From an uncultured Chlamydiae bacterium (GTDB lineage Bacteria > Chlamydiota > Chlamydiia > Chlamydiales > SM23-39): a stretch of DNA of 64,000 nucleotides. Location: positions 1,720,394-1,784,393 of the forward strand of contig CAWHDP010000002.1 in NCBI GenBank assembly GCA_963828125.1. The letters are read 5' to 3'. Position numbers and translations under genes: made by a program. The notes beneath the pieces were generated by a model. That model did not search any database. It saw nothing but the letters and a program-made list of their open reading frames with translations, and had not been told where the DNA came from. Positions within the stretch are counted from its first letter, which is position 1, and each line of letters begins with the position of its first letter. Below are positions 55,501 through 64,000 of the stretch, piece after piece.

Positions 55501-56337
55501 TCAAGCATCGGTATACTCCAGAAAGCCAGTCGAAGCAATTTCTTTCGCTTTTTCGATCAATTCAACTTTTGAGTGGCAAGAGAGTTTATTTTTTATGGAT
55601 GAGATGTAGCTTTCAACCGTTCGAACGCTGCCTAAGTGGAGTTTTTCCTTGATATAGGAGGCGGGAAACCCGTTTGCCAAAAATGCAAGGACCTCTTTTT
55701 CCCGTGGCGAGAGGGCAAAAATCGCAGTACACCCCAATTCGCGTAAAAAACCGGACCGGTCGCAGGGAGTGACTCCCCCTTTTGGAGGCTCATAAAGGGC
55801 CCTGCCCATCAATGGATTTAAATCGACCCCGTTATCCTCGACCGAACGGATGAGTTTTTGATGTCTTTTCCGAAATTCCTTAGTGAAATAACGGAGGAGA
55901 GGGAGTTCGTTCAGAAGCCTCTCTTCCGCCTCAAGATTATTGAAACGGGTACCAAATCCAAATGCGGAGATCCCTTCAGAGCAGCGTTCGAATATATTGA
56001 GATTGAAATGAATGCCAAATTTTTCCCAGATGGTGTTCAATATTTCTTGGGCCTCCGCATTTAAACCCGTTTTCATGAACGTGATTCCAGGCTGCAGAAC
56101 ATCTGGATGGCGTACGCAAGGGAAGTATTTAATAAGGCCATAATGGGCGCAGTACTCATTCCATGCCTCATGCGTCCCTACGTACGCATAAGTTCCATCG
56201 GACAAGATCCGGTAATACCAAAAATGGTTGATCCCAAAATGATCGAAAAGGGGCTGGGCAAAACGAACCATCGACCCAAAATAAGGAGAGGATTGATTTC
56301 TCCTCGTCATCTCTATCAGAGGTTTCATACCGGGCAT
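55501..56337 (-). CDS. LuxR/GerE-family transcriptional regulator with an uncharacterised N-terminal domain
   Basis: 278 aa. C-terminal HTH LSPREKEVLAFLANGFPASYIKEKLHLGSVRTVESYISSIKNKL. The ~200 aa N-terminal domain is unassigned. Confidence 0.75.
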   Translation of the reverse strand: MPGMKPLIEMTRRNQSSPYFGSMVRFAQPLFDHFGINHFWYYRILSDGTYAYVGTHEAWNEYCAHYGLIKYFPCVRHPDVLQPGITFMKTGLNAEAQEILNTIWEKFGIHFNLNIFERCSEGISAFGFGTRFNNLEAEERLLNELPLLRYFTKEFRKRHQKLIRSVEDNGVDLNPLMGRALYEPPKGGVTPCDRSGFLRELGCTAIFALSPREKEVLAFLANGFPASYIKEKLHLGSVRTVESYISSIKNKLSCHSKVELIEKAKEIASTGFLEYTDA

Positions 56338-56438
56338 TTTACAGATTGTTATTATTTCCTACAAGTTGATTCAGAAAAGGCGTTAACTATTATAATAAAG
56401 GAATTTCAAGCATCATATTATAAATTTTTTGCAATACC

Positions 56439-56500
56439 TAGCCCGCATTTCTCACACATCCGCGGAAAATCTGCTCAATCTGTGTGAGAAATGCAGGCTC
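56439..56500. mobile_element. family-A element, internally deleted (A4)
   Basis: TAgcccgcatttctcacacatccgcggaaaatctgctcaatctgtgtgagaaatgcaggctc. Equals A3 with a deletion between two tctgt direct repeats. Overlaps the last ~8 codons and the stop of the ankyrin-SET gene. Confidence 0.8.
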
Positions 56501-58082
56501 GATCGTTTACGGTTTGAAGATGATTCCATACTTTTAAAAAAGGTTCTTCTAGCAAAGAGGCGTTGATCTCGGATAGTTGCCCAAGGGCTTTTATTTTTTT
56601 TAATAGGAATTGATTGGTGTTTGTCGCAACAATCAAAACAGTTTTAATACCTGTTCTGGACGGGAGACGCTTAAAATATTCTTCATAGGCTGAGGCGGCT
56701 TTAGAAGAATACGTCCGGACTCCTTCCCTGACCTCGATGCACTCCAAAGCCGTATTGAGAAGCTGTTGTGCATCTATTTTCGCTTGAGTATGAAGAGCGT
56801 CAAAGAGAGAAATCATCTTCGCAAGTTCTGTCGCTTTTTCCTTGTTCAACGTCCCGTCGAAAATCATTGAAAAATAGACCGATAGAGTTTCCAAAATATA
56901 CCGAAATTTTTCGGCCAAAGCCACTTGATTGAAGTCAAGATCGCCCGTGGCACCACGGACGAATAGGTAACGTCCCAATTCAGCAATATCGTGCTGTTGA
57001 ATGAAATCTCTAACCTCTTTTGGCCGGAGTTCTGCATAAGGCCCATACTTAACGGCGTGTTTGCCGTAATGCCAACAAAACTGTTCTCCTGGTGCAATGG
57101 GGTTTGTGGCAACTAGGACACGGCGGTCATGAACTCCTTGTAGATCTCCAATATGGAGCAAGGCCGTATTGGGGAACCCATCGTTGATTTGCGGGATCTC
57201 ATTTCTAAATTCCAGACTGTCTATTGGACCTAGCACGTAGGGGTTATGGATCTCCCGATGGGTCAGCACACCTTTATAGTCTCCGATGAAGCTTTGCGAC
57301 TCAATAGAGTTCTTAGCAAAAAGGCCGAGTCCGGGGCTGCATACTAACCTGCTACCGACAGAGTCGTGAGTCACTCTGGACAAAATATGCATCACAGGAA
57401 TATGCCGCGTATATCTATTCCTAAATTGATCTGTGAATGGGAACACCTCAGGCAGCGAGCCAACCTCAAACAAACGGTGCTTAGGAATCTGGTGTTCATC
57501 AATGAAAGTCGCCCTTGTGAGTTCCTGAAATTTTCCCCGAGTCAACACTGTTTCTGCCCCTTGCTCATCTCTCCAAATCACCCCAATGAGCGCCTGGGGA
57601 TCGTTCAATGGGGACTTGACTAGATTTAAAACATCCGTGTAGCTTCCCCCCTGTCTGGTCAAACAAGCGGGGTCGGCCCCTCGACTGAGCAAGTACTTGA
57701 TCATTTGAGCATCGGATCCCAAGGCAGCCATATGGAGCGGCGTCCACTTCGTCGAATCTGCGGCATTGAGATCGGCGCCAGCTTCCACCAACCTAGTCAC
57801 AGCCCCCTGGTTTTTAAAAATCACTCCTATATGAAGGGGGGTGAGCCCTCTGCTATTCAAAGGTTCATTCAATCTAGAGCGCCCTGCCAATGGGATTGCA
57901 AAATCTACGACGGCATCGATCCCTTCCAAAATAGCCGCATTCAAAGCGGCGATGGATACCGATAGGTCATACTTTGGTTTTTTGAAGTTTTTTTGACTAC
58001 GCTCCTTTTCAAGCTCTAATTGCTCCCAGATATTTTTTTTCAATCCGGTCACAAACGGATCATGACCTTTTATTTCGTTCAT
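56475..58082 (-). CDS. eukaryote-like ankyrin-repeat + SET-domain protein (putative secreted lysine methyltransferase)
   Basis: 535 aa. Ankyrin repeats at aa ~45-140 (GLTPLHIGVIF...AGADLNA...WTPLHMAALG...GADP). SET domain at aa ~240-345 (SPGLGLFAKNSIESQSFIGDYKGVL, QINDGFPNTAL, PGEQFCWHYG). Confidence 0.75.
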   Translation of the reverse strand: MNEIKGHDPFVTGLKKNIWEQLELEKERSQKNFKKPKYDLSVSIAALNAAILEGIDAVVDFAIPLAGRSRLNEPLNSRGLTPLHIGVIFKNQGAVTRLVEAGADLNAADSTKWTPLHMAALGSDAQMIKYLLSRGADPACLTRQGGSYTDVLNLVKSPLNDPQALIGVIWRDEQGAETVLTRGKFQELTRATFIDEHQIPKHRLFEVGSLPEVFPFTDQFRNRYTRHIPVMHILSRVTHDSVGSRLVCSPGLGLFAKNSIESQSFIGDYKGVLTHREIHNPYVLGPIDSLEFRNEIPQINDGFPNTALLHIGDLQGVHDRRVLVATNPIAPGEQFCWHYGKHAVKYGPYAELRPKEVRDFIQQHDIAELGRYLFVRGATGDLDFNQVALAEKFRYILETLSVYFSMIFDGTLNKEKATELAKMISLFDALHTQAKIDAQQLLNTALECIEVREGVRTYSSKAASAYEEYFKRLPSRTGIKTVLIVATNTNQFLLKKIKALGQLSEINASLLEEPFLKVWNHLQTVNDRACISHTD

Positions 58083-63705: not shown

Positions 63706-63729
63706 ACTGGACATTGGCCAATGTCCAGT
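63706..63729. mobile_element. family-C element reduced to its termini (C1)
   Basis: actggacattgg|ccaatgtccagt, a perfect palindrome directly abutting B5. Confidence 0.7.
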
Positions 63730-63770
63730 TCAAGAATCATATTTTAATATTTGCAATATTGCGATCGTTA

Positions 63771-63857
63771 ATTTTTCGGCCAAAGCCACTTGATCGAAGT
63801 CAAGAGTGTGCGTGGTTCTCCGGCCAAAAACGGATCATGACCTTTTATTTCGTTGAT
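63771..63857 (-). pseudogene. internally deleted remnant of a second ankyrin-SET gene copy
   Basis: 63822-63857 (tccggccaaaaacggatcatgaccttttatttcgttGat) matches the first 36 nt of the 56475..58082 gene (58044-58082), with ATG changed to ATC. 63771-63815 matches 56906-56950 of the same gene. About 1.1 kb is missing in between. Confidence 0.65.
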
Positions 63858-64000
63858 ATTCAATTCCAAAATGTGGGTCACTTTCTGATGTCGCTTGACA
63901 TGCGGAGACCGTCAAAGGGGCGTTTGCCGGTTTCCCTATATATATCGGCAGGGTAAAAATAAAAGAGCTCCCCTTGCCTAATTCGGATTGCACGGCCACC

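Follow-up and report, generated by a model that had tools for sequence, protein, structure and literature searches.

What kind of DNA follows kdsB in this genome, and what might its genes do? The stretch analyzed here, a window of 64,000 nucleotides (nt) from the ~1.9-Mb genome of an uncultured member of the Chlamydiales, had been read in a first-pass annotation as turning, downstream of kdsB, into an AT-rich accessory island of eukaryote-like genes, a recombination-prone effector nursery packed between palindromic repeats. We found that the segment between 55.4 and 63.9 kb is indeed a lineage-specific accessory segment adjoining kdsB, and that it carries two overlapping genes, one for a J-domain protein and one for a protein with ankyrin repeats and a SET domain (Ank-SET), which form a conserved, translationally coupled and mobile bicistronic module. 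All of the open reading frames (ORFs) listed in the annotation were found where they had been placed. Four of the six domain labels held in profile searches, while the HIT and F-box labels failed the thresholds. The eukaryote-like character applies to the ankyrin, SET and J domains but not to the LuxR-type protein, a regulator of an ordinary bacterial kind.

The J-domain and Ank-SET genes form a conserved pair

The two genes of the module are arranged as follows:

58079 to 59263, minus strand: J-domain protein of 341-394 amino acids (aa; start codon uncertain)
56475 to 58082, minus strand: ankyrin-repeat and SET-domain protein of 535 aa

As annotated, the first gene encodes a J domain, which scored 46 bits against the Pfam DnaJ model (E=5.8e-12; cut-off 27.8 bits) and in which the HPD motif is intact (...LALKHHPDKGG...). 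The protein is not a DnaJ class I/II orthologue; NCBIfam DnaJ models gave 20-36 bits against cut-offs of 338-619, and these matches were limited to the J domain. A J-domain type III effector is known from Pseudomonas syringae, HopI1, which recruits host Hsp70. It shares with the window protein a stand-alone J domain with the HPD motif outside the DnaJ/CbpA/DjlA housekeeping classes, but the position of the J domain differs, there is no sequence relationship past this domain, and HopI1 has no methyltransferase partner. The J-domain and Ank-SET genes of the window meet in an ATGA overlap, in which the stop codon of the former falls within the start codon of the latter.

Genomic context was examined for the window and for eight other members of the Ank-SET family, nine loci in all, of which L091 was added by a metagenome scan with a SET profile. 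A J-domain gene was immediately upstream of Ank-SET in six of the nine (the window, L085/L086, L087, L090, L091 and L096), with ATGA overlaps or gaps of 1-2 nt at the junctions, and the most divergent family member (29% identity) is among these paired loci. No J-domain gene was immediately upstream of Ank-SET in L088, L089 and L095. Given that bacterial genomes of such size have only a handful of J-domain genes, the probability of chance adjacency in six of nine loci is negligible. In four of the loci (the window, L085, L090 and L091), homology among the J proteins also continues past the J domain, for example at DKYLSLxRS. Small ORFs upstream of the pair, compared across the loci, showed no homology to each other, so the module consists of two genes, not three.

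The neighbors of the pair, by comparison, differ at every locus. We found transposase or integrase fragments in the flanks of L088 and L095, and RING, DUF294, Fic, protein kinase and F-box-like genes in those of L085, L087 and L090; a LuxR homologue recurred near the pair only in L090, where it is frameshifted. A fixed pair amid changing neighbors indicates that the pair is the mobile unit and that the gene order is not core synteny. The annotation had proposed that the segment is accessory and would fall if the same order were conserved in distant relatives; the family loci in other Chlamydiales turned out to have entirely different neighbors. Full-text literature searches returned no paper connecting a J domain with a SET or ankyrin protein.

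The Ank-SET family has a variant SET motif

The Ank-SET protein of the window is composed of an N-terminal region, ~2-3 ankyrin repeats (residues ~50-145; Pfam E=2e-12), a SET domain (~250-345) and a conserved helical C-terminal domain. NCBI annotates it as an ankyrin-repeat protein only. For this protein alone the SET domain scored 21.0 bits, slightly below the Pfam cut-off of 22.4, and matches to PF00856 are precomputed for three family members. We aligned 16 Ank-SET sequences with 28-44% identity and built a SET profile from 15 of them. The search of the PDB with the full-length profile was dominated by ankyrin matches and was repeated with the SET-containing part only, which matched MLL1 (9.6e-6), EZH2 (1e-4) and LegAS4 (1.6e-3) over the whole domain, together with the SET domains of MLL3 and SETD8 (the set spans E=1e-5 to 3e-3). 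The ankyrin-plus-SET call is thus borne out, for the SET half by way of the family profile.

Two signature motifs are invariant in all 16 sequences and align to the motifs of MLL1: G251 and G253 in SPGLGLFA, the GxG that binds S-adenosylmethionine (SAM), and the putative catalytic tyrosine Y339 in FCWHYG or FCWNYG. The canonical NHSxxPN motif is absent. In its place all 16 sequences have N300-D301-G302-F303-P-N, so that the Asn and the final PN remain and the His has become Asp. Ank-SET appears to be a separate, patchily distributed family (~16 sequences) restricted to uncultured Chlamydiales.

Among described proteins, RomA/LegAS4 of Legionella pneumophila is a histone H3K14 methyltransferase effector with a SET domain and ankyrin repeats, in which the repeats bind the H3 tail and are required for activity (PMC10653858). 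RomA, like the window protein, joins SET and ankyrin in one ~530-aa protein of an amoeba-associated intracellular bacterium; the LegAS4 SET domain is among those matched by the family profile, and the catalytic Tyr, the SAM-binding GxG and the Asn are kept in the window family. The domain order is reversed, however, with ankyrin repeats, SET and an extra conserved C-terminal domain of ~190 aa in the window protein and SET followed by six ankyrin repeats in RomA (PMC10653858). The window protein also has fewer repeats and NDG in place of NHS, any export here would by analogy use a type III secretion system whereas RomA uses Dot/Icm, and neither the RomA paper nor the reviews consulted describe a counterpart of the J-domain gene beside the window Ank-SET. 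We detected no orthology to RomA (lpp1683/lpg1718), the similarity being limited to the SET domain. Another SET effector, NUE (CT737) of C. trachomatis, is type III-secreted and nuclear and methylates histones (PMC3980110). By review description, NUE and cpnSET of C. pneumoniae are set apart from the window family as chlamydial SET proteins that have nuclear-localization signals and no ankyrin repeats (PMC3980110).

Base composition and setting of the segment

The segment is AT-richer than the DNA before it, as had been noted from the letters alone. GC content falls from 0.520 (positions 1-47600) to 0.454 (55501-64000), with the drop beginning past kdsB (GC 0.588), and the signal is strongest at third codon positions: GC content there (GC3) was 0.37-0.49 in seven of seven island ORFs and 0.53-0.75 in 32 ordinary genes of the window, with zero overlap. 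Related chlamydial loci bearing homologues of the island genes have a GC content of 37-44%, which makes the low GC content of the segment compatible with acquisition from lower-GC relatives. We infer that the island genes were probably acquired from such chlamydial relatives or from other residents of the same protist host.

The remainder of the window carries ordinary bacterial genes (for UvrB, PutA, an autotransporter, UvrD and KdsB). The autotransporter (936 aa; 18599-21409, minus strand; beta-domain E=3e-18) is possibly a Pmp-like surface protein. Low GC3 was also seen in four orphan ORFs without a family match (22907-24472, 29500-30309, 47645-49450 and 49553-51499), so the window contains several such islets. 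The first of these ORFs, an orphan gene of 521 aa with GC3 0.43, directly adjoins the single tRNA gene of the window, which an Rfam scan placed at 22.7 kb, and a nested palindromic element described below comes after it (22728-24829 for the whole region). The second (29500-30309, plus strand; 269 aa, GC3 0.46) has a bilobed hydrophobic domain at residues 185-228, a feature typical of chlamydial inclusion-membrane (Inc) proteins. The other two are tandem paralogs of 601 and 648 aa (47645-51499, minus strand) that are 50% identical, each with one N-terminal hydrophobic segment and without family matches. With GC 38-40% and GC3 0.36-0.41, this islet, located between a gene for an HI0933-like flavoprotein and a methyltransferase gene, is even AT-richer.

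The same DNA, 99.9-100% identical, is present in four other assemblies, and a 35.7-kb NCBI contig of it stops inside the island, at 60396. A kdsB search of species-representative genomes found no close relative; the top match was 48% identical and came from other phyla.

A 2H phosphoesterase fusion and an F-box-like protein

Upstream of the J-domain gene, and beyond a small ORF described below, are two further genes, the first of which is best described as two modules:

61153 to 62052, minus strand: N-terminal module (residues 1-~300) of a 526-aa protein, with a helical subdomain and a 2H-SAK phosphoesterase domain
60472 to 61110, minus strand: C-terminal module (residues ~315-526) of the same protein, HIT-like at the motif level only
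62402 to 63295, plus strand: 297-aa protein with an F-box-like N-terminus, a relative of a 557-aa F-box-like/leucine-rich repeat (LRR) protein but LRR-less

The 526-aa protein had been called HIT-like. This label holds as a motif-level resemblance: the C-terminal module gave no Pfam HIT match even at E<=10, a two-sequence profile of the module found no HIT structure in the PDB, and the single supporting match was a phmmer alignment to the HIT protein 1y23 (E=0.36) over the HxHxH motif. The motif itself, HHPHSHVLP, is kept in the homologue P0125. The supported domain, which had been missed, is the N-terminal 2H-SAK domain (PF22547), scoring 27.1 bits against a cut-off of 27 in the window protein and 16.7-26.4 bits in homologues, with P0122, P0124 and P0126 also matching. 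The 2H superfamily is defined by two His-x-Thr/Ser motifs (PMC5283653). Both are present here as GHITTVEP (HITT) and PPHISVFSQE (HISV), are kept in six of six full-length homologues, and lie on predicted strands of the structure model (E175-179 and E252-259), for which the predicted local distance difference test (pLDDT) was ~88 over residues 1-297 and below 50 in the C-terminal module.

Structural comparison of the 2H half by Foldseek gave, with modest scores throughout, a SAK 2H phage protein (prob 0.96), drCPDase, which is a bacterial 2´,3´-cyclic phosphodiesterase (prob 0.87), the phosphodiesterase ns2 of MHV (0.54) and, weakly, phage Acb1. The window protein has the same two HxT/S motifs on central strands as the known 2H phosphoesterases (LigT/CPDase, coronavirus ns2 and Acb1), but differs from them in an extra N-terminal helical subdomain of ~100 aa and in the HIT-like fusion. 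The top structural relatives were uncharacterized proteins of Orpheovirus (E=5e-9) and Yasminevirus (E=1e-4) in BFVD. Both are giant viruses that infect amoebae, and the modeled kinship hints at gene exchange inside amoebae. The two halves are separate genes elsewhere (2H-type P0122-P0124, P0126 and P0127; HIT-like P0125, in L094), so the window gene is a fusion. The fusion protein probably hydrolyzes a nucleotide-derived molecule, such as a 2´,3´-cyclic or 2´-5´-linked nucleotide or an RNA end. At one locus, L092, the stand-alone 2H gene P0124 is found among HepT/MNT and Gp49/HTH toxin-antitoxin, Fic-like, zeta-toxin-like and primase/DUF3987 genes. These surroundings are of the mobile or defense type, and the C-terminus of P0124 resembles a membrane anchor.

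The label of the 297-aa protein as F-box also fell short. Pfam F-box PF00646, the sole family touching the N-terminus, scored 12.2 bits (E=0.19; cut-off 20.5 bits), and the AlphaFold model, with a pLDDT of 38, was unusable. A word-index homology search with the protein returned only the self match. When 1.8 billion representatives were searched exhaustively with HMMER, a single real homologue emerged, the 557-aa P0130, which is 54% identical over residues 1-166. P0130 itself has no Pfam F-box match, but its LRRs matched the solved structures of FBXL2 (4e-10) and SKP2 (2e-5). The homology ends in the window copy exactly at the onset of the LRRs, which the window copy lacks. We therefore regard an F-box-like nature of the 297-aa protein, as read from these alignments, as plausible.

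F-box/LRR, RING and DUF294 families (NEX1/NEX2) are expanded in the Parachlamydiaceae (Domman et al. 2014; PMC4209131). By description, P0130, with its F-box-like N-terminus, unassigned middle and C-terminal LRRs, can be likened to the NEX1a-type layout of Neochlamydia (PMC4209131), from which the window copy departs in having no LRRs and a sub-threshold F-box score. RING and DUF294 genes flank the module in L085, where they lie just downstream of the pair (11106-15867). We also noted a 206-aa protein with an F-box-like match (E=3.5e-3) beside the J/Ank-SET pair in L090 (9086-9706) and a J protein with an F-box-like N-terminus (E=0.1) in L091 (3695-5464).

Palindromic repeats and remodeling of the segment

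Four palindromic families, R1-R4, occur in 4-9 copies each, compared with 0.01-0.11 expected, and their hairpins fold strongly (z from -6 to -12). Between the genes, the repeats are grouped into arrays that recur:

63639 to 63730: array R4-R1-R2, with a terminator-like hairpin CCGTAAAAAATACGG, a 21-bp-stem hairpin TTATACTGCGGCCACCCCAAA and a palindrome ACTGGACATTGGCCAATGTCCAGT; free energy -40 kcal/mol, z=-8.7
62134 to 62378: R1 arms separated by a 205-bp insert
60101 to 60448: array of R3 (60101-60144), R4 (60220-60235), R1-like (60302-60317) and an R2 hairpin (60371-60448); z=-12.2
59461 to 59560: array of R4 (59461-59476), R2 (59512-59526) and a short R1 hairpin (59533-59560)
56440 to 56499: R3 hairpin extending into the 3´ end of Ank-SET; z=-6.3
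55478 to 55492: R2 half-site between kdsB and the LuxR gene, at the left edge

Together with a T-run, the hairpin CCGTAAAAAATACGG resembles a terminator, and it is found after three transcription units of the minus strand. Repeats had been reported in every intergenic gap. All island gaps were found to contain at least one copy, apart from the 60-bp gap that follows the F-box-like gene, where there is a separate hairpin. Copies also occur elsewhere in the window, at 21.4, 24.6, 37.2 and 45.9 kb. The repeats are therefore genome-wide elements, denser in the island, and the dense packaging that had been described holds as a matter of density but is not specific to the segment. One R3 copy (21420-21438) is just upstream of the autotransporter start codon, another (37220-37238) is at the end of putA, and two R3 arms 125 bp apart (45887-46011) come right after an ordinary gene. 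At 24586-24829 we observed a 244-bp nested palindromic element resembling a miniature inverted-repeat transposable element, with outer arms AGCCCGCATTTCTCACACAGACGCG and a long R1 hairpin as its inner part.

Short-read contigs of this DNA end at, or a few bases from, repeats at all contig ends but one; L083 and L084 end within the 60101-60448 array, and L002 begins at 62351, just before the right R1 arm. The repeats thus explain why short-read metagenome-assembled genomes of the organism break exactly in the island region. Among the 96 loci compared, R1-R4 were found only in contigs of the source species, and an Rfam scan of the window matched the repeats to no known RNA family. REP/BIME, Correia and Rickettsia palindromic elements are likewise short, multi-copy, strongly folding intergenic mosaics that sometimes enter coding sequence. 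The sequences of R1-R4 are unrelated to these elements.

Entry into coding sequence is seen here as well: an R3 repeat (56475-56499) provides Ank-SET with its final seven codons (...ACISHTD*) and its stop. The remaining ORFs of the segment are as follows:

55501 to 56337, minus strand: LuxR-type regulator of 278 aa with a GerE helix-turn-helix (HTH)
59582 to 60085, minus strand: 167-aa orphan ORF, called as a gene in two other assemblies
63356 to 63622, minus strand: 88-aa (74-aa) Pro/Ser-rich ORF, a doubtful gene, called as a 74-aa gene in L001
63729 to 63867, minus strand: ~140-bp relic of a second Ank-SET copy, in three pieces collinear with the intact gene
63835 to 64000, minus strand: 3´ end of an ORF leaving the window

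The LuxR call was confirmed by Pfam GerE (E=4.3e-12, residues 209-263); NCBIfam matches of this protein were confined to the HTH, its first ~200 aa have no domain assignment, and its GC3 is 0.49. The 167-aa ORF, which had been listed without a function, has no match in Pfam, NCBIfam or PADLOC and no homologue beside the J/Ank-SET pair in related loci; an R3 repeat (60086-60119) gives it a false N-terminal extension of 8 codons. For the Pro/Ser-rich ORF, annotated as a small protein, nothing past the open frame supports a gene: neither Pfam nor NCBIfam gave a family match, and its GC2 is 0.56 against a GC3 of 0.37.

The decayed second ankyrin-SET copy that had been proposed is real but tiny. 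Its pieces match 58044-58092 (88%), 56905-56940 (97%) and 56405-56436 (84%) and correspond to the N-terminal 13 codons (NEIKGHDPF), an internal piece of 12 codons (LDFDQVALAEK) and the 3´ flank. Relative to the intact gene, ~1.1 kb and 0.47 kb are deleted, while order and orientation are the same. The last 11 codons of the ORF leaving the window derive from this relic. The tail ELGKGSSFIFTLP of that ORF looks by eye like the end of a histidine-kinase ATPase domain; with no Pfam match at E<=10, this is retained as a likeness only. The idea of a recombination-prone nursery is supported in part, by the relic, the 2H and HIT-like fusion, the F-box-like gene without LRRs and the gene termini supplied by repeats.

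What the module may do

We think it fairly likely that this lineage-specific accessory segment harbors a coupled J/Ank-SET module that is exported to the host cell, where it would act as a methyltransferase and an Hsp70 recruiter. Since its acquisition, the segment would be undergoing remodeling by deletion, fusion and insertion of palindromic repeats. Both proteins of the pair would be exported through the type III system used by chlamydiae; the ankyrin repeats would bind a protein of the host, for which Legionella RomA suggests a histone tail as the most likely candidate, and the SET domain would methylate a lysine on the bound protein. The J partner would engage host Hsp70, either so that the translocated enzyme is refolded or activated or so that clients bound to Hsp70 are brought to it. 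We infer the export of Ank-SET and methylation in the host because RomA ankyrin repeats bind the H3 tail and NUE is type III-secreted. No hydrophobic segment, membrane segment or Sec-/signal-like N-terminus was found in any island protein. The F-box-like gene may be a decayed member of the Parachlamydiaceae families of F-box/LRR ubiquitin-ligase mimics, and the LuxR-type protein is a candidate local regulator.

A more specific form of this idea is that the pair is a two-component effector system, in which the J protein would hijack host Hsp70, either to activate or refold the methyltransferase once translocated or to offer it Hsp70 itself, or the clients of Hsp70, as substrates for methylation. 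We know of no bacterial SET or J-domain effector that works as such a system, and we put this form forward as speculative and, as it stands, improbable.

Several observations weigh against an effector island. Classical island marks are absent: no integrase or transposase domain was found in any island ORF (Pfam, NCBIfam), no tRNA site or flanking direct repeats bound the segment, and the R2 copies at 55478 and 63706, belonging to a family that is dispersed, are not unique borders. The case for an island is made by base composition and by the changing surroundings of homologues, and weak selection on young genes would yield similarly low GC3. The F-box and HIT labels are sub-threshold, a bacterial regulator of the LuxR type is embedded in the segment and again lies near the pair in L090, and with NDGFPN in all family members the activity or cofactor binding of the SET domain may differ. 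Finally, cpnSET methylates the chlamydial histone-like protein Hc1, so a bacterial target is possible (PMC3980110).

This last point leads to the alternative that the module acts inside the bacterium, where the SET protein would methylate a bacterial target (such as a histone-like nucleoid protein in the developmental cycle), the J protein would work with DnaK and the LuxR-type protein would regulate, together making up a lineage-specific regulatory cluster. An HPD J domain would serve DnaK equally well, partner proteins of bacteria are typically encoded in tightly coupled operons, and the position of the LuxR gene, adjacent in the window and near the pair in L090, fits as well. The ankyrin repeats and the F-box-like, RING and FBXL-type LRR neighbors point instead to eukaryotic targets, the family is patchy and in variable mobile contexts, unlike a developmental core function, and among solved structures the SET domain is matched most closely by MLL/EZH2 of eukaryotes and by LegAS4, an effector of Legionella. 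We consider a bacterial role unlikely on this balance.

We regard as still more doubtful the possibility that the segment consists mainly of decaying genes without function, a graveyard in which AT-biased mutation and repeat insertion erode the ORFs. Such erosion could account for the Ank-SET relic, the loss of LRRs from the F-box-like gene, the gene ends rewritten by repeats, the low GC3, the doubtful 88-aa ORF and the orphan 167-aa ORF. Yet the long ORFs are intact, the catalytic and signature residues are invariant in 16 Ank-SET homologues at 28-44% identity, the HPD motif and both 2H motifs are conserved, and the pair has been kept over deep divergence, with the sequence 99.9-100% identical in four independent assemblies. 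An anti-phage or anti-mobile-element defense island, in which the 2H/HIT enzymes and the regulator would act on signaling nucleotides, is very improbable: 2H enzymes do include nucleases that degrade cyclic-nucleotide signals, such as the weak structural match Acb1, and P0124 is among toxin-antitoxin and Fic genes in L092, but PADLOC found no system or component past generic HTH/ankyrin similarity, the segment has no known defense architecture, and its domains are typical of host interaction.

Implications

Eukaryote-like repertoires in environmental chlamydiae are already well documented (PMC4209131), and an island as such was therefore to be expected. In the literature searched, by comparison, we found no description of the Ank-SET family with its reversed RomA domain order and invariant NDG for NHS, of the fixed J-domain pairing across deep divergence and changing neighborhoods, or of a 2H family structurally common with amoeba giant viruses and fused to a nucleotide-enzyme-like module. 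From the fixed pairing of the two genes one would predict that the J-domain and Ank-SET proteins are partners, whether physically or functionally. If the enzyme and an Hsp70 recruiter are indeed delivered together, this would be a new route by which bacteria put chromatin or protein methyltransferases to use in host cells.

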